From: an uncultured Anaerolineales bacterium
GTDB taxonomy: Bacteria > Chloroflexota > Anaerolineae > CG2-30-64-16
Assembly: GCA_964647255.1 (NCBI GenBank)
Contig: CAZYGI010000005.1
Location: 624 to 64,623, forward strand
Direction of reading: 5' to 3'
Length of the DNA stretch: 64,000 nucleotides
Below are positions 6,173 through 39,904 of this stretch, one piece after another. The translations under genes were made by a program, and so were the position numbers. Within the stretch, counting starts at the first letter, position 1. Each line of letters opens with the position of its first letter. Under the pieces are notes generated by a model. The model saw only the letters and a list, made by a program, of their open reading frames with translations, was not told the origin of the DNA and did not search any database.

Positions 6173-8155
6173 ATGGCAAAAGTCACTATGGTTCCGAGCA
6201 TTGATCCGGCCGCCTGCGGCATCCTGGATTGGGCCAGCGCCGAAGGCATCCAGACTTCGTTCAGCCGCGCGGCCGATTTCAAGCCCTGCACTATCGGCAA
6301 CGGGCAGTCCGGCGTGTGCTGCAAGAACTGCTACATGGGCCCATGCCGCATCACCAAGGACGGCCAGGTCGGCATCTGCGGCGCGACCGTGGAGACGATC
6401 GCCGCGCGCAACCTCGCGCGCGCCATCGCCGCGGGTTCGGCCGCGCATTCAGATCACGGCCGCGACCTGGCCTTCACCCTGCAGGCCGTTGGGCTGGGCG
6501 AGGCCCAAGGCTATGAGCTGCGCGACACAGCCAAGCTCTACTCGGTCGCGGCCAAGCACGGCATCCCCACCAGGGGCCGCAGCGACAAAGAGATCGCACT
6601 GGACGTCGCCAACAAGGCGATCGGCGAGTTCGGCCAGCAGCGCGGCCAGTTGAGCTATCTCTCGGTCGCGCCGCCCAAGCGTCAGGCGATTTGGAAGGAG
6701 CAGGGCGTCATGCCGCGCGGCATTGATCGCGAGGTCGTCGAGATCCTGCATCGCACGCATATGGGCGACGACCAGGACGCCAGCCACATCCTCAACGCCG
6801 CGATCCGCACCGCGCTTTCCGACGGCTGGGGCGGCTCAATGTGGGCCACCGACATCTCCGACATCCTGTTCGGCACCCCCAGCCCCAAGGTGGGCGAAGT
6901 GAACCTGGGCTGCCTGGAGGAGAAGCAGGTCAACATCATCGTCCACGGCCACGAGCCGACCCTCAGCGAGATGATCGTGACCGCGGTGCAGGACCCCGAG
7001 CTGATCGCCTACGCCAAGAGCAAGGGCGCGGAGGGGATCAACCTGGCCGGCATCTGCTGCACCTCGAACGAGGTGATGATGCGCCAGGGCATCCCGTCGG
7101 CCGGCAACTTCCTCAACCAGGAGTTGGCGATCCTCACCGGCGCCATCGAGGCGATGGTGGTGGATGTGCAGTGCATCATGCAGTCGCTGACCGGCGTGGC
7201 GAGCCATTTCCACACCGAGATCATCACCACCAGCCCAAAAGTGAAGATGACCGGCGCGACGCACATCGAGTTCGACGAGCATCACGCGCTGGATATCGCC
7301 AAGAGTATCGTGAAGCGCGCGTGCGACAACTACACCCGGCGCGGTGACACGCGCATCCCCAAAGACAGCGCCCAAGCGGTGGTGCCCGGCTTCAGCCACG
7401 AGTACCTGAACTACATGCTGGGGGGCTTCTACCGGCAGTCGTTCCGGCCGCTGAACGAGGCCATCGCGACCGGCCGCCTCCGCGGTGTGGCGGCCGACGT
7501 GGGCTGCAACAACCCCGGCATGACCCAGGACAAGGCGCACATGGACGTCATCACCGAGCTGCTGAAGAACGATGTCCTGGTCGTGAGCACCGGCTGCGGC
7601 GCGCTGGCAGCGGGCAAGTACGGCTACCTTAAGGGCGAGGCTGGCCTGGACAAGGTCGGCCCGGGGCTGCGCGAGATCTGCGAAACCCTCGGCATCCCGC
7701 CTGTGCTGCACATGGGCTCGTGCGTGGACAACAGCCGCATTCTGACCGTGCTGAGCCAGATGGCAACCGAGGGTGGGCTGGGCGACGACATCAGCGACAT
7801 CCCGGCCGTGGGCCTGGCGCCGGAATGGATGAGCGAGAAGGCGCTGGCCATCGCCGCGTACTGCGTCGGCTCCGGCGCCTACGTCATGATGGGCGTCCGC
7901 AACCCGGTGGAGTTCGCCGACGCGGTGACCGACATCCTCTCCGGAGAATGGGAGAAGAACTACGGCGGCAAGCTGGAGTTCGTGGTCGAGCCGGCGGAGA
8001 TCGTCAAAAAGACGCTGGAGCACATTGACAAGAAGCGCGCCGCGCTCAAGCTGCCCGCCTACGACCCGACCCACTTCGGCGCCTCCGGTGACGCCGCGAT
8101 GGAAGCGTTCGTCGAGCTCCCGGTGGAACAACAGATGGCGGAGCTTTACGGCTGA
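6173..8155 (+). CDS. acsA: anaerobic Ni-dependent carbon monoxide dehydrogenase catalytic subunit
   Basis: CTIGNGQSGVCCKNCYMGPCRI N-terminal Fe-S motifs, ~660 aa. Start moved from 6077 to ATG 6173 (AGGAG upstream). Confidence 0.92.
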   Translation: MAKVTMVPSIDPAACGILDWASAEGIQTSFSRAADFKPCTIGNGQSGVCCKNCYMGPCRITKDGQVGICGATVETIAARNLARAIAAGSAAHSDHGRDLAFTLQAVGLGEAQGYELRDTAKLYSVAAKHGIPTRGRSDKEIALDVANKAIGEFGQQRGQLSYLSVAPPKRQAIWKEQGVMPRGIDREVVEILHRTHMGDDQDASHILNAAIRTALSDGWGGSMWATDISDILFGTPSPKVGEVNLGCLEEKQVNIIVHGHEPTLSEMIVTAVQDPELIAYAKSKGAEGINLAGICCTSNEVMMRQGIPSAGNFLNQELAILTGAIEAMVVDVQCIMQSLTGVASHFHTEIITTSPKVKMTGATHIEFDEHHALDIAKSIVKRACDNYTRRGDTRIPKDSAQAVVPGFSHEYLNYMLGGFYRQSFRPLNEAIATGRLRGVAADVGCNNPGMTQDKAHMDVITELLKNDVLVVSTGCGALAAGKYGYLKGEAGLDKVGPGLREICETLGIPPVLHMGSCVDNSRILTVLSQMATEGGLGDDISDIPAVGLAPEWMSEKALAIAAYCVGSGAYVMMGVRNPVEFADAVTDILSGEWEKNYGGKLEFVVEPAEIVKKTLEHIDKKRAALKLPAYDPTHFGASGDAAMEAFVELPVEQQMAELYG

Positions 8156-8232
8156 ACGTTTACGCGTTATCACGTTTGAACGGTGGAACGTGCTAACGTG
8201 TAAACGTGTAAACGTGCAACGGAGGAACACAC
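8156..8232 (+). repeat. octamer array, unit NNAACGTG, about 9 units
   Basis: ...ggaacgtg ctaacgtg taaacgtg taaacgtg caacggag. Same unit as the array at 62461-62535. Confidence 0.85.
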
Positions 8233-10518
8233 ATGTCACGATACATTGCCACGCGCGCCATCCGCGGCGCGAACTTGATTGTGCAAGAAGCTGAGGCGCT
8301 GCTCAACAAGGCCCTGAAGGAAAAGGGGCCAGAGACGCCGGTGGCTTTCCCGAATACCGCCTACTATCTGCCGGTCATTCTCGGCTTCACCGGCCGCGAA
8401 ATCACCAAGCTGGGTGAGCTGGTCCCCGTGCTGGCGCACGCCAAGGATCTGTTGCACCCCGTGCCGTCGGCCCAATGCTGGACCCCCTACCTGGGCGAGA
8501 CGCTCGATTCCGGCTCCGCGACACTGCTGGCAGCCGAGATCATTGAGGCGGTGCGCTTCGTCTACGGCGAGGAACCGGGCTCGATCGCTGGCTTCCATGG
8601 CGCGGACGGCAGCTTCACCAGCCCTGACATGGCCGGCGGCAACGGCAACGGTGCGGGCCGGCTGAACGGCCCCATTGACGACATCCAGCTCCGCGCCTGG
8701 GGCATCCAACTGGTGGACGGCCGCATGCCCGGCTTCGCGGCGATCGTCGGCTGCGCCAAGAGCAACGAGGTCGCGGTCAAGATCGTGCGCGAGCTGCAGA
8801 AGCGCAACATTCTGATCTTCCTCTGCGGCAACGTGAACGGCCGCTCCGTCATCCACCAGCTCATGGAGGAAGGCGTCGAGATGGGCTACGACACCTACAT
8901 CGTGCCGTTCGGCCTCGACACCCTCTCCGCGATCTACCCGCTCGGCTTCGCCACCCGCTCCGCGCTTACCTTCGGCGGGATGAAGGGCGGCCAGGCCAAG
9001 GACATCCTGATCTACAACCGGCAGCGCGTGTTTGCATTCGTGCTGGCGCTGGGCGAGGTGGACGACCTGAAGTACGCGGCCGCGGCCGGCGCGATCAACT
9101 ACGGTTTCCCGGTCATCGCAGACACGCGCATCCCGCAGATCCTCCCGACGGGCGTCACCACCTACGAGCACGTTATCTCGATGCCGTTCAACGAGATCGA
9201 GGGCAAGGACGACCTGGAACGCGCCGAGAAGCTGGTGCAGAAATGCGTCGAGACCCGCGGGGTCAAGATTAAGCTGACCGAAGTCCCAATCCCGGTGCCC
9301 TACGGGTCAGCGTTCGAGGGCGAGGTCGTCCGCAAGGCCGACATGCGCGCGGAGTTCGGCGGCAAGTACAGCCGCGCGTTCGAGTACCTGCGCATGATCC
9401 CAATGGACCAGGTCGAGGACGGCAAGATCGAGGTGATCGGCCCCAGCTTCGAGGATCTGCCCGAGGGCAAGGCGATGGATATGGGCATCCTGGTCGAGGT
9501 GGCCGGCCGCAAGATGCAGGAGGACTTCGAGCCGGTGCTCGAACGCCAGATCCACTACTTCGTCAACGGCGCGTCGGGCATCCAGCACATCGGCCAGCGC
9601 GACATCACCTGGATCCGCATCAGCAAGGCCGCGGCCGAGAAGGGCTTCAACCTGAAGCACTTCGGCGAAATCCTGCACGCCCGCTTCATGGCCGACTTCG
9701 GCGCGATCGTGGACAAGGTGCAGGTGAAGATCGTGACCGAGCCGGCGCTGTTCCAGGAGTCGCTGGCAAAGGCGCGGGCGGCCTACGACTATCGCAACCG
9801 GCGCCTGGCCGACATGACCGACGAAGCGGTGGAAGAATTCTACACCTGTACGCTGTGCCAGTCGTTTGCGCCGACCCACCTGTGCCTGGTCAGCCCGCAG
9901 CGGCTGGGGCTGTGCGGCGCGTACAACTACCTGGACTGCGCCGCGAGCTACCAGATCAACCCCACCGGGCCCAATCAGCCGGTGCGCAAAGGCCGCGTGC
10001 TTGATGCCGAGAAGGGCGTCTACACCGGGCTGAACGAGATCGCCATCCAGAAGTCCAACGGCACGGTGCAAGAAGTGTCCATGTACTCGATCATGAACAA
10101 CCCCATGACCGCGTGCGGCTGCTTCGAGTGCATCGTGATGCTGATCCCCGAAGCGAACGGTGTGATGGTGGTGAGCCGCGAGGACACCAGCATGACCCCG
10201 GCCGGCATGACCTTCTCGACGCTGGCGGGCATGGCCGGCGGCGGCCTCCAGACCCCCGGCGTGATGGGCGTGGGCAAGTACTACCTGACCAGCCCGAAGT
10301 TCATCTCCGCGGATGGCGGGTTCAGCCGGGTCGTGTGGATGTCGAGCGTGCTGAAGCAGACGATGGCCGCGGAGCTGCAGGCCGTGTGCGAGCGCGAGGG
10401 CGACCCCGACCTGCTGAGCAAGATCGCGGATGAGACCATCTGCACGGACGTGGACGGGCTGCTCGCGCACCTGGAAGCGACGGGGCATCCGGCGCTGATG
10501 ATGGAGCCGATGTTCTAA
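8233..10518 (+). CDS. acsB: acetyl-CoA synthase (CODH/ACS alpha subunit)
   Basis: MSRYIATRAIRGANLIVQEAE..., CTLCQSFAPTHLCLVSPQRLGLCGA and A-cluster ACGCFEC motifs; 761 aa. Confidence 0.95.
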   Translation: MSRYIATRAIRGANLIVQEAEALLNKALKEKGPETPVAFPNTAYYLPVILGFTGREITKLGELVPVLAHAKDLLHPVPSAQCWTPYLGETLDSGSATLLAAEIIEAVRFVYGEEPGSIAGFHGADGSFTSPDMAGGNGNGAGRLNGPIDDIQLRAWGIQLVDGRMPGFAAIVGCAKSNEVAVKIVRELQKRNILIFLCGNVNGRSVIHQLMEEGVEMGYDTYIVPFGLDTLSAIYPLGFATRSALTFGGMKGGQAKDILIYNRQRVFAFVLALGEVDDLKYAAAAGAINYGFPVIADTRIPQILPTGVTTYEHVISMPFNEIEGKDDLERAEKLVQKCVETRGVKIKLTEVPIPVPYGSAFEGEVVRKADMRAEFGGKYSRAFEYLRMIPMDQVEDGKIEVIGPSFEDLPEGKAMDMGILVEVAGRKMQEDFEPVLERQIHYFVNGASGIQHIGQRDITWIRISKAAAEKGFNLKHFGEILHARFMADFGAIVDKVQVKIVTEPALFQESLAKARAAYDYRNRRLADMTDEAVEEFYTCTLCQSFAPTHLCLVSPQRLGLCGAYNYLDCAASYQINPTGPNQPVRKGRVLDAEKGVYTGLNEIAIQKSNGTVQEVSMYSIMNNPMTACGCFECIVMLIPEANGVMVVSREDTSMTPAGMTFSTLAGMAGGGLQTPGVMGVGKYYLTSPKFISADGGFSRVVWMSSVLKQTMAAELQAVCEREGDPDLLSKIADETICTDVDGLLAHLEATGHPALMMEPMF

Positions 10519-26381: not shown

Positions 26382-26478
26382 ACAAGCAGACACGGAAAAC
26401 ATGGACCAGGAACCGGGGCACACTCCCTCGGCTCCTCGTCTCCTTGTTTCCTTGTTTCCTATCACAAGGAGCCACACC

Positions 26479-27390
26479 ATGTACGACCTCATCATTATCG
26501 GTGGTGGGCCGGCCGGGCTGACGGCAGCCATCTACGCCATCCGCAAACGGTTGAACTGTCTCTTGATCAGCCCAGACCTGGGCGGCAAAGCCAACGTCCA
26601 CACTCACATTGAGGGCATGGACACCTACAACATCGTCAACGGTTCGGATCTGGTGCGCCGTTTCCGCAACGAAGTGGAATACCTGGACTTTGCGCGCATC
26701 CTGGAGAAAGTCTCCGCGCTGAGAAAAGTTGAAAACCGCTTCGTCGTCACGACGGTCGGCGGCAAGGAGCTGGAGGCGCGGGCGGTCATCCTGGCTAGCG
26801 GCGCCGACGGTGTGCGGCTGGCCGTCCCCGGCGCCGACCGTTACGCTCTGCGCGGGATCACCTACTCCACTGTCAGCTATGCCCCGCTGTACATTGACAA
26901 GACGGTGGCGTTGGTAGGCGCAGGCCGCATCGCGCTGCGCGGTGCGGCCGAGCTGGCGCAGATCGCTAAGCAGCTCTATCTCGTCGCGCCGACGCATGGC
27001 GAACTGGACACCTACCTCGGCCGGAAGCTGCGCGCCGCACCGAATGTCACCCTGTTCGAGAATTGGACGCCTGCAGCCGTGCAAGGTGAGGATGTGGCCC
27101 GCCAGCTCGTGATCCGGTCGCCCGAAGGCGCGGAGCAAACGCTGGAGGTGGATGGCATCTTCGTCGAACTGGGGCTCAAACCCAACACCCAACTGGTGGC
27201 GGGTTGGGCGAAGCTGGACGATGAAGGCCGCGTCGTGATCAACGGCGAGGGCCAAACCAGCGTGCCCGGCCTCTTTGCCGCAGGCGATGTGACGAATGAG
27301 CCCGCCGAGCAGGTCGTCATTGCGATCGGCGACGGCGCTAAAGCGGCCCTGAACGCGTACGAGTATCTGTTGAAATGCGAGGAGTGCTGA
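26479..27390 (+). CDS. thioredoxin-reductase-like FAD oxidoreductase lacking the redox CxxC, with C-terminal CEEC
   Basis: MYDLIIIGGGPAGLTAAIYA, GLFAAGDVT. The position of TrxB CATC reads STVS (GITYSTVSYAPLY). The protein ends ...YEYLLKCEEC. Confidence 0.8.
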   Translation: MYDLIIIGGGPAGLTAAIYAIRKRLNCLLISPDLGGKANVHTHIEGMDTYNIVNGSDLVRRFRNEVEYLDFARILEKVSALRKVENRFVVTTVGGKELEARAVILASGADGVRLAVPGADRYALRGITYSTVSYAPLYIDKTVALVGAGRIALRGAAELAQIAKQLYLVAPTHGELDTYLGRKLRAAPNVTLFENWTPAAVQGEDVARQLVIRSPEGAEQTLEVDGIFVELGLKPNTQLVAGWAKLDDEGRVVINGEGQTSVPGLFAAGDVTNEPAEQVVIAIGDGAKAALNAYEYLLKCEEC

Positions 27391-39080: not shown

Positions 39081-39133
39081 CGTCAATCCGCAGCGATTCT
39101 CGCCGATGCATCCTTAAACGGAGGACAACACCT

Positions 39134-39904
39134 ATGACAGTCGCAGTGGGGCAAGTCGCCCCGAATTTCGCCCTGAAAAGCCACGATGGGCGGACCATTC
39201 ACCTGAGCGATTACCGGGGGAAGCGTAACGTTGTGCTGGCCTTCTTCCCCTTGGCCTGGACCCCGGTCTGAACAAGCCAGATCCCGTCGTACCAGGCCGC
39301 ACTCGGCCGGTTTGATGGGGTCAAGACCCAGGTTCTGGGTCTCAGTGTAGACAGCGCACCCTGCCTGGCGGCCTGGGCGGAAAGCCTGGGCGGCATCACT
39401 TACCCGCTCCTGAGCGACTTCTACCCGCACGGCGCGGTGGCCGACCTGTATGGCGTGCTGCGCGGAGAAGGCTACAGCGAACGGGCCATCTTCGTGATTG
39501 ACACGACCGGGATTGTGCGCTACGTGGACGTGCACGATATTGACCAACAACCGGACAACGAAGTGTTATTCGGTGTATTGGACGACATCGAACCCGAGTT
39601 AGGCGCGGCCTATCGAGCCACCGAAGCGCAAAAAGCGGCTGCGGCGCACCCCGCCCCGGCGCCCCAAGGCGGCGTGATCATGTACTGCACCACCTGGTGC
39701 CCCTCCTGCCGGCGGGCGCGCACCTTCCTCGCGGAGAACGGCATCGCCTTCACTGAAGTTGACATCTCCAAGGACCGGGGCGCGGCCGCGAAAGTGCGCG
39801 GCTGGGCGAACGGCAACGAGACAACGCCGACGTTTGACATCAACGGGACAATCATCGTGGATTTCAAACAGGCTGAGGTGGCAAAGGTCCTGGGCTTGAA
39901 GTAA
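39134..39904 (+). CDS. peroxiredoxin (AhpC/TSA)-glutaredoxin-like fusion with in-frame TGA (39269-39271) at the peroxidatic Cys: candidate selenoprotein
   Basis: FFPLAWTPV-TGA-TSQIP fits PxxxTxxC. Prx homology continues after the TGA. The C-terminal CPSC Grx/NrdH-like domain is the track ORF 39437..39904, same frame. GGAGG RBS before ATG 39134. Confidence 0.7.
39283..39319 (+). promoter_or_regulatory. SECIS-like stem-loop candidate
   Basis: CCCGUC/GAUGGG outer stem (one G-U), CC..GG, GGCCG/CGGCC inner stem, CACU loop. The apical loop is ~31 nt after the UGA. Confidence 0.45.

Follow-up and report, generated by a model that had tools for sequence, protein, structure and literature searches.

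The Prx (TxxU) family of selenoproteins reportedly goes back to Sohling et al. in 2001. Peroxiredoxins (Prx) that carry selenocysteine (Sec) in a PxxxTxxU motif are treated as an established prokaryotic selenoprotein family in passages of the relevant papers (PMC1794560, Zhang et al. 2006; PMC9312934; PMC13188914). Members of this family have the Pfam domain PF00578, Sec in place of the peroxidatic Cys, Cys-containing homologs and a selenocysteine insertion sequence (SECIS) located within the coding sequence just downstream of the Sec codon. The same features were found in the gene described here, which occupies positions 39134 to 39904 of a 64-kb stretch of DNA (64,000 nucleotides, contig CAZYGI010000005.1; the whole stretch is referred to as the window) from an uncultured Anaerolineales bacterium. 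Judged from comparative sequence analysis, it very probably is a genuine selenoprotein gene, encoding an AhpE-type peroxiredoxin whose peroxidatic residue is Sec, followed in the same chain by a mycoredoxin-like domain. Since the PxxxTxxU family is established, the core idea is not new; the fusion and the displaced position of the SECIS apex, on the other hand, appear to be undescribed. The passages of the family papers name no fusion of the glutaredoxin (Grx) type, and those of the two reviews do not name Chloroflexi (PMC9312934, PMC13188914). A literature search of incomplete coverage yielded no description of a Sec-containing Prx-Grx or AhpE-mycoredoxin fusion, no account of Anaerolineae selenoproteins and no SECIS that includes a spacer hairpin.

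PrxU of Eubacterium acidaminophilum (NF040737) is also a Sec-peroxiredoxin with the same catalytic chemistry, but it belongs to another Prx subfamily, depends on thioredoxin and has no fused redoxin. It had been offered for comparison in a first-pass annotation of the window made from the sequence alone, and proved a poor match: with the PrxU model the fusion protein reaches 58.7 bits, the cutoff being 270, and its Prx domain is AhpE-type and its Grx domain mycoredoxin-like. The nearest solved relatives of the two domains are AhpE (Rv2238c) and mycoredoxin-1 (Rv3198A) of Mycobacterium tuberculosis, in which AhpE is reduced by mycoredoxin-1 (PMC6178380; PMC8945050). The gene can therefore be regarded as a fusion of homologs of a known peroxidase and its reductant. 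In Mycobacterium the two are separate, mycothiol-dependent Cys proteins, whereas the window protein is one chain with predicted Sec at the peroxidatic site. To our knowledge, Chloroflexota is not a phylum known to make mycothiol. Hybrids of Prx5 and Grx (PGdx; PDB 1NM3) occur in Haemophilus influenzae and its relatives and use their C-terminal Grx as a built-in reductant; they join a peroxidase of the Prx5 type to a classical Grx that depends on glutathione, and use Cys throughout. The 60 PDB matches listed for the full protein, the 21 obtained with the Grx domain and the 50 fold matches listed include neither a Prx5 nor a PGdx chain, which suggests that the present fusion arose independently of PGdx.

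The gene is a single frame of 256 codons which starts MTVAVGQ, reaches FFPLAWTPV immediately ahead of the TGA at codon 46, its sole interruption, and resumes with TSQIPSYQ to run on to TAA 39902-39904. The Shine-Dalgarno sequence lies 9 nt ahead of the ATG. Direct reading matched every coordinate given for these elements in the first-pass annotation, and the TGA falls, as had been claimed there, on the C of the PxxxTxxC motif, where it aligns with Cys45 of M. tuberculosis AhpE (motif FFPLAFTGIC). The gene had been described as hidden from the list of open reading frames (ORFs), and indeed ORF callers split the frame at the TGA: in the ORF listing and by public gene callers it is cut into a 45-residue piece and a 155-residue piece starting from GTG 39437, and in public records it appears as a truncated "glutaredoxin" or "redoxin domain-containing protein". 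The features of the locus, all on the forward strand, are as follows.

39120-39124 (+), Shine-Dalgarno sequence GGAGG, read directly
39134-39904 (+), complete coding sequence of the putative Sec-peroxiredoxin/mycoredoxin-like fusion, 256 codons, with UGA as codon 46 and TAA at the end
39146-39526 (+), AhpE-type peroxiredoxin domain, residues 5-131 (Pfam AhpC-TSA); predicted catalytic residues Pro39, Thr43, Sec46 and Arg117 (Arg117 at 39482-39484)
39269-39271 (+), UGA read as putative selenocysteine, residue 46, at the peroxidatic position; the TGA is conserved and aligns with AhpE Cys45
39281-39321 (+), hairpin 1, 41 nt, starting 9 nt past the UGA; conserved and covarying, proposed structured spacer
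39324-39342 (+), hairpin 2, 8-bp stem AGACCCAG/CUGGGUCU with a GUU triloop at 39332-39334; proposed SelB-binding apex
39551-39667 (+), interdomain linker, approximately residues 140-178, helical at first and then Ala/Pro-rich
39674-39856 (+), mycoredoxin/NrdH-like domain of glutaredoxin fold, residues 181-241 (Pfam Glutaredoxin), with WCPSC (39698-39709) and the cis-Pro motif TTPT

The claim of a selenoprotein, namely a Prx-Grx fusion whose peroxidatic residue is Sec, is supported by the TGA in 80 of 80 species-level genomes, by Cys homologs, by hairpins specific to the TGA forms and by evidence for Sec in the SelD of the lineage. The orthologs were the 80 best loci from a collection with one genome per species, and nearly all carry the label Anaerolineae, Anaerolineales, Thermoflexales or Chloroflexota. 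In each of the 80 this very codon is TGA and the frame is not interrupted again, so that the codon is kept and stops have not accumulated. Cys occupies the TGA column in 52 called homologs, which are more distant than the TGA forms and confirm the placement of the codon in the Prx alignment. A protein search gave a corresponding picture: the nearest matches (74-81% identity) are about 200 residues long and start just past the TGA, while full-length matches are more distant. Among metagenome loci, TGA was found in 50 of 53, though the scan had been seeded with Cys forms. Approximately half of these TGA loci have no detected Grx domain; many of them encode a stand-alone Prx of about 153 residues, and in some the contig ends before that region. 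The loci without a detected Grx domain (for example L122-L133) probably represent the Prx (TxxU) family as already described.

Another reading of such an interruption is that of a pseudogene or split gene, in which the TGA is a true stop that leaves a 45-residue remnant and the remainder either restarts or is dead. Every automatic gene caller splits the gene in this way, and one metagenome copy (L116:2038-2065) has an additional in-frame TAG eight codons past the TGA. The comparative data contradict this explanation, which is extremely improbable. The same single stop, with no other lesion, recurs in 80 of 80 genomes. The ratio of nonsynonymous to synonymous differences (pN/pS) is 0.20 over the 16 codons that precede the TGA and 0.25 over the 90 that follow it, and purifying selection thus acts on both sides. 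Synonymous differences (pS) between orthologs are about 0.65, which places synonymous sites near saturation; the retention of TGA in all 80 genomes at this level argues for selection for UGA itself. In 79 of 81 loci an ATG precedes the TGA by 43-49 codons (mostly 44-45), with a Shine-Dalgarno-like motif in 77 of these. The first possible restart codon past the TGA is not conserved but scattered between 9 and 56 codons downstream; in the window it is 56 codons away, and a protein restarted at that point would lack the active site and half of the Prx fold. The RNA structure past the TGA, described below, is likewise conserved and specific to the TGA forms. A called homolog, P0053, has Arg at the Sec column, possibly by a change of TGA to CGA; this protein and L116 are rare decayed copies or sequencing errors. 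Two contigs of ERZ250395xx assemblies, L005 and L174, have frameshift-split genes (acyl-CoA dehydrogenase and queA in L005, selD in L174), and because these frameshifts are typical of long-read assembly errors, single lesions there should not be taken for biology. One of the 80 gene-carrying genomes, L027 (JBLMXX010000428.1), is labelled Acidobacteriota, which reflects either mis-binning or horizontal transfer.

Some called proteins have Trp (P0001, P0003) or Gly (P0005, P0011) at the TGA column, which is how TGA is translated under genetic codes 4 and 25, respectively, and could be taken to mean that UGA is a sense codon in these organisms. The stop-codon usage of the window contradicts this and leaves a reassigned code with next to no likelihood: TGA is the terminator of many well-supported genes, including the adjoining queA, so the genetic code is standard. 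A composition-based scan of the window, with a refined filter that recovered the present gene as a positive control, revealed no other TGA-bridged coding region or selenoprotein candidate. The window belongs to a Chloroflexota genome of 64% G+C, and we know of no use of code 4 or 25 in this lineage. Approximately 18 further called proteins (JGI, Logan; short contigs) also show the TGA as Trp or Gly. It is apparently because of this selenoprotein gene that the callers chose code 4 or 25 for Chloroflexota contigs.

The domain assignments were based on a Pfam search of the read-through product with a placeholder at the TGA. Residues 5-131 were identified as AhpC-TSA (PF00578) with an E value of 5.4e-39 (133 bits, cutoff 26) and residues 181-241 as Glutaredoxin (E 4e-13), in agreement with the first-pass annotation, which had recognized a peroxiredoxin and, past the TGA, a CPSC glutaredoxin-like domain. 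The top seven PDB sequence matches were all M. tuberculosis AhpE (E about 1e-28), the next best having an E value of 7e-20. A structure model was made for a Cys-form homolog, P0018 (pLDDT 91.6, pTM 0.81), and could be superimposed on AhpE with a TM score of 0.92 (range 0.88-0.93) and a root-mean-square deviation of approximately 1.4 Å (1.3-1.6 Å). In sequence and in fold the Prx domain is nearer to AhpE than to Prx1, Prx6, PrxQ, Tpx or Prx5. The linker region of this model consists of two helices followed by coil and contains the block of lowest pLDDT (73). None of P39, T43 and R117 varies among 59 sequences. C77, the one further Cys in the Prx domain, gives way to Ser in P0001 and P0005 and does not figure among the conserved columns; since it is not conserved, the protein is predicted to be a one-Cys (here one-Sec) enzyme.

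For the C-terminal domain the nearest solved structure is M. tuberculosis mycoredoxin-1 (2LQO, E 3e-10). The best redoxin models in NCBIfam were mycoredoxin TIGR02200 (57.8 bits, cutoff 89.5) and YruB, both below cutoff, and no NCBIfam model reached its cutoff on the fusion protein. No variation occurs at W188, C189, T231 and P232, and conservation is at least 90% at C185 and C192. C185 is a third Cys located four residues before the CPxC (Y-C-T-x-W-C-P-x-C; residues 185-192, window 39686-39709), conserved to the same extent in Sec and in Cys forms, and has no counterpart in M. tuberculosis mycoredoxin-1 (YTTSWCGYC).

Two hairpins were identified downstream of the UGA. The stem-loop placed by the first-pass annotation at 39283-39319 is real: the minimum free energy (MFE) structure forms a stem-loop at 39280-39322, with a free energy of -30.1 kcal/mol over 39266-39335 (z = -3.5; none of 200 shuffles as stable). 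Hairpin 2 (39324-39342) was absent from that annotation. Each of the 80 unique orthologous sequences forms two hairpins past the TGA. In their ungapped alignment 91.4% of cells are paired, as compared with 86.2% in column shuffles (none of 500 reached the observed value) and 22-49% in slid registers. For hairpin 1 the proportion is 87%, and for hairpin 2 it is 98.9%, with compensatory changes at two pairs. One pair, made up of the third base of a Pro codon and the third base of an Asp/Glu codon, was found in six types (AU 22, UA 19, GC 9, CG 6, GU 6, UG 4) and is kept even where Asp switches to Glu. Divergent Sec-Prx loci also form the lower stem of hairpin 1, but from quite different sequences.

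These structures were compared between 128 Sec forms and eight Cys forms. Hairpin 1 folds with -20.7 +/- 3.5 kcal/mol in the former and with -6 to -13 kcal/mol in the latter; for hairpin 2 the values are -12.2 +/- 1.4 and, except in L170, -1 to -7 kcal/mol. The QVL codons of hairpin 2 are lost in seven of the eight Cys forms. Because the hairpins are conserved in the TGA forms and weak in the Cys forms, the structure goes together with the TGA and is not a mere side effect of the encoded protein. The exception, L170 (399-1268), is a Cys-form (TGT) fusion in which hairpin 2 is at full strength (GCCCAGGUUCUGGGC, -13 kcal/mol) and hairpin 1 has been lost; it may be a recent Sec-to-Cys conversion. 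A further small hairpin (GUCUG...CAGAU) is predicted at window positions 39266-39282 in many orthologs; it has the UGA inside its stem and competes with the first pair of hairpin 1.

Genes for Sec biosynthesis and decoding were searched for with ARAGORN on 1.66 Mb and by tblastn with approximate E. coli SelA, SelB and SelD sequences as queries. This search yielded one selD only, in the Thermoflexales MAG (metagenome-assembled genome) JTS-AC224 (L047). It is located at 8787-9833, approximately 30 nt downstream of the Prx-Grx ortholog (8009-8758) and on the same strand, and scores 371 bits against TIGR00476 (cutoff 125). The two genes possibly form a two-selenoprotein operon; such an adjacency was found in this one of the 80 genomes only. 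SelD homologs labelled Anaerolineales are common and typically called N-terminally truncated, which is to be expected if SelD contains Sec. Four such selD loci (L171, L172, L173 and L174; relevant region approximately 9970-10050 in each), called N-terminally truncated in public records, were added. TGA was found at the Cys17 column (...CAG-U-ASKL...) in all five selD loci. It is followed in four of the five by the element GGCGCAG-GUN-CUGCGCC with its loop 33 nt past the UGA (in L173 inferred from the identical AQVLR peptide). The synthesis of a SelD that contains Sec requires the full pathway, and the lineage therefore decodes Sec.

The consensus for bacterial SECIS (bSECIS) elements, as given around Fig. 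2 of PMC13188914, comprises a loop of 3-9 nt carried by an upper stem of 4-16 bp, a folding energy (MFE) of -7.5 kcal/mol or below, G within the first two nucleotides of the loop (usually G[G/U]) and a distance of 16-37 nt from the UGA to the loop. The selD elements of the lineage agree with this consensus on all four of the criteria applied, whereas neither of the Prx hairpins alone does so. The latter observation counts against a selenoprotein, and others do so as well. No tRNA-Sec, selA, selB or selD was found in the 64-kb window, where the only tRNA is one tRNA-Lys, or in most flanks; selA, selB and tRNA-Sec were found in no flank examined, including the neighborhoods of the four further selD genes. 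Rfam gave no SECIS or other meaningful match, either in gathering mode on the whole window or in permissive mode on 39230-39380. The RNAalifold consensus of the 80 sequences retains hairpin 2 only, the covariation in hairpin 1 having been obtained by explicit pair counting. At the two covarying pairs of hairpin 2 the changes coincide with Thr/Ala and Leu/Ile replacements and could in part reflect clade history.

It could be argued from the lack of detected Sec machinery that the UGA is read through without selenium, either by insertion of a near-cognate Trp, Cys or Arg with the help of the hairpins or by leaky translation. Stable downstream structures can promote stop-codon read-through. This explanation is nevertheless very unlikely. 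The UGA is located exactly on the catalytic Cys column, where a peroxiredoxin needs Cys or Sec to be active, and Cys could be obtained through TGC or TGT as in the relatives. Moreover, the selD of the lineage has UGA at Cys17, which is the classic site of Sec, and past it a canonical SECIS with the same apex as that in the Prx gene, and the conservation of the codon at synonymous saturation speaks for UGA itself. It is inferred that Sec, and not another residue, is inserted at position 46 in the source organism.

The first-pass annotation had flagged hairpin 1 and placed its loop inside the spacing window of bacterial SECIS elements. That part stands, and the hairpin is conserved; its loop begins with G[G/U] in only 10 of 128 sequences, and hairpin 2 is the likelier SelB site. 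The apex of hairpin 2 (AGACCCAG-GUU-CUGGGUCU) has the form CAG-GUN-CUG, as in the selD SECIS of the lineage, with GUN in the loop of all 128 sequences. It resembles canonical elements (E. coli fdhF; bSECISearch consensus) in being a hairpin within the coding sequence with a small apical loop starting G-U. The fdhF apex, which we take to be GCAGGUCUGC, is very similar. With a 3-nt loop, a median stem of 8 bp and a mean MFE of -12.2 kcal/mol (worst -9.5), hairpin 2 lies within the consensus for loop, stem and energy. Canonical elements are located 16-37 nt from the UGA, whereas the loop of hairpin 2 is 60 nt away with the conserved 41-nt hairpin in between; with hairpin 1 looped out the distance is 19 nt. 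With hairpin 1 folded, the UGA is separated from the base of hairpin 2 by 9 + 2 = 11 unpaired nt; in E. coli the 17-nt minimal stem-loop must sit 11 nt from the UGA, and its loop residues G23 and U24 are essential (PMC8659212).

A CAG-GUN-CUG hairpin with a stem of at least 6 bp was found at approximately 16 unrelated positions in the 3.4 Mb scanned, as against past essentially every Sec-Prx TGA. Further hits with an upstream in-frame TGA were rejected as ordinary genes in other frames. The selD SECIS encodes A-Q-V-L-R and hairpin 2 of the Prx gene T-Q-V-L-G, so that the same Q-V-L codons are found at both apices. Because its apex is that of the selD SECIS, hairpin 2 is the likelier SelB site, and we tentatively assign this role to it and that of a structured spacer to hairpin 1, the chances of this assignment being right or wrong about equal. 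The more specific proposal of a bipartite SECIS, in which the 41-nt spacer hairpin brings hairpin 2 from 60 nt into range and leaves 11 single-stranded nt, is similarly balanced between acceptance and rejection.

Hairpin 1 may, as a less probable but serious alternative, be the true SelB-binding SECIS, with hairpin 2 either an accessory element (a ribosome pause or stabilizer) or a consequence of the QVLG peptide; the gene would still encode a selenoprotein. The apical loop of hairpin 1 is 17-30 nt (median 27) from the UGA, within the accepted 16-37 nt. In 127 of 128 sequences it has a loop of 3-10 nt, and its mean MFE is about -20.6 kcal/mol, which is in keeping with the consensus for loop, stem and energy, and G is among the first two loop positions in 77 of 128. 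The hairpin is strongly covarying and absent from the Cys forms, and bSECIS elements are often mutually dissimilar, as a passage of the review states (PMC13188914). Against this, its loop is variable in sequence and in length (3-15 nt overall), G[G/U] is rare, and it is unlike the selD SECIS, which the same SelB must read and to which hairpin 2 is alike. The invariant GU of hairpin 2 and the loss of the QVL codons from nearly all Cys forms are also hard to explain by protein constraint alone.

With hairpin 2 as the probable SelB-binding site, the following mechanism can be postulated from the sequence. Translation would start from ATG 39134, and SelB with Sec-tRNA(Sec) would insert selenocysteine at UGA 39269, the two-hairpin RNA just downstream within the coding sequence serving as the signal. 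Sec46, in a one-Cys, AhpE-type PxxxTxxU site, would reduce a hydroperoxide and be converted to the selenenic acid. Cys189 of the fused WCPSC motif would then attack the selenenic acid to form a selenenylsulfide, which Cys192 would resolve with formation of the CxxC disulfide. An external thioredoxin-reductase-type enzyme or a low-molecular-weight thiol would re-reduce this disulfide. Both the electron path via the fused domain and the final reductant are predictions.

The genes surrounding the fusion gene code for an acyl-CoA dehydrogenase, a DUF3786 protein, a HEAT-repeat protein, QueA and RuvB; no redox partner was found among the adjoining genes in the window. Twelve kb upstream, at 26401-27390 (+), is a gene for a 329-residue pyridine nucleotide-disulphide oxidoreductase of the thioredoxin-reductase type (Pyr_redox_2, E 2e-34), the product of which ends ...LKCEEC, an unusual C-terminal CxxC. 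This protein is a possible candidate for the reductant of the redoxin domain.

The fusion of a Sec-peroxiredoxin to its own Grx-type domain had been called unusual, but it is widespread in Anaerolineae-type genomes. It represents a large conserved selenoprotein family in Anaerolineae-type Chloroflexota, present in at least 80 species-level genomes and on many metagenome contigs, the genes for which are systematically split in the databases or translated with the wrong code, and no curated model captures the protein. As a natural fusion of AhpE and mycoredoxin homologs it provides independent support for the AhpE-mycoredoxin-1 partnership outside Actinobacteria, and, since natural Cys twins of the same architecture exist, it offers a one-chain system in which Sec and Cys can be compared at a Prx active site. 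Should SelB bind to hairpin 2, the range of distances accepted for bSECIS elements would be too narrow and selenoprotein prediction would have to change. If the SECIS is bipartite, the distance for Sec decoding would be measured in folded space and not along the sequence, and current search rules would miss SECIS elements of this class.

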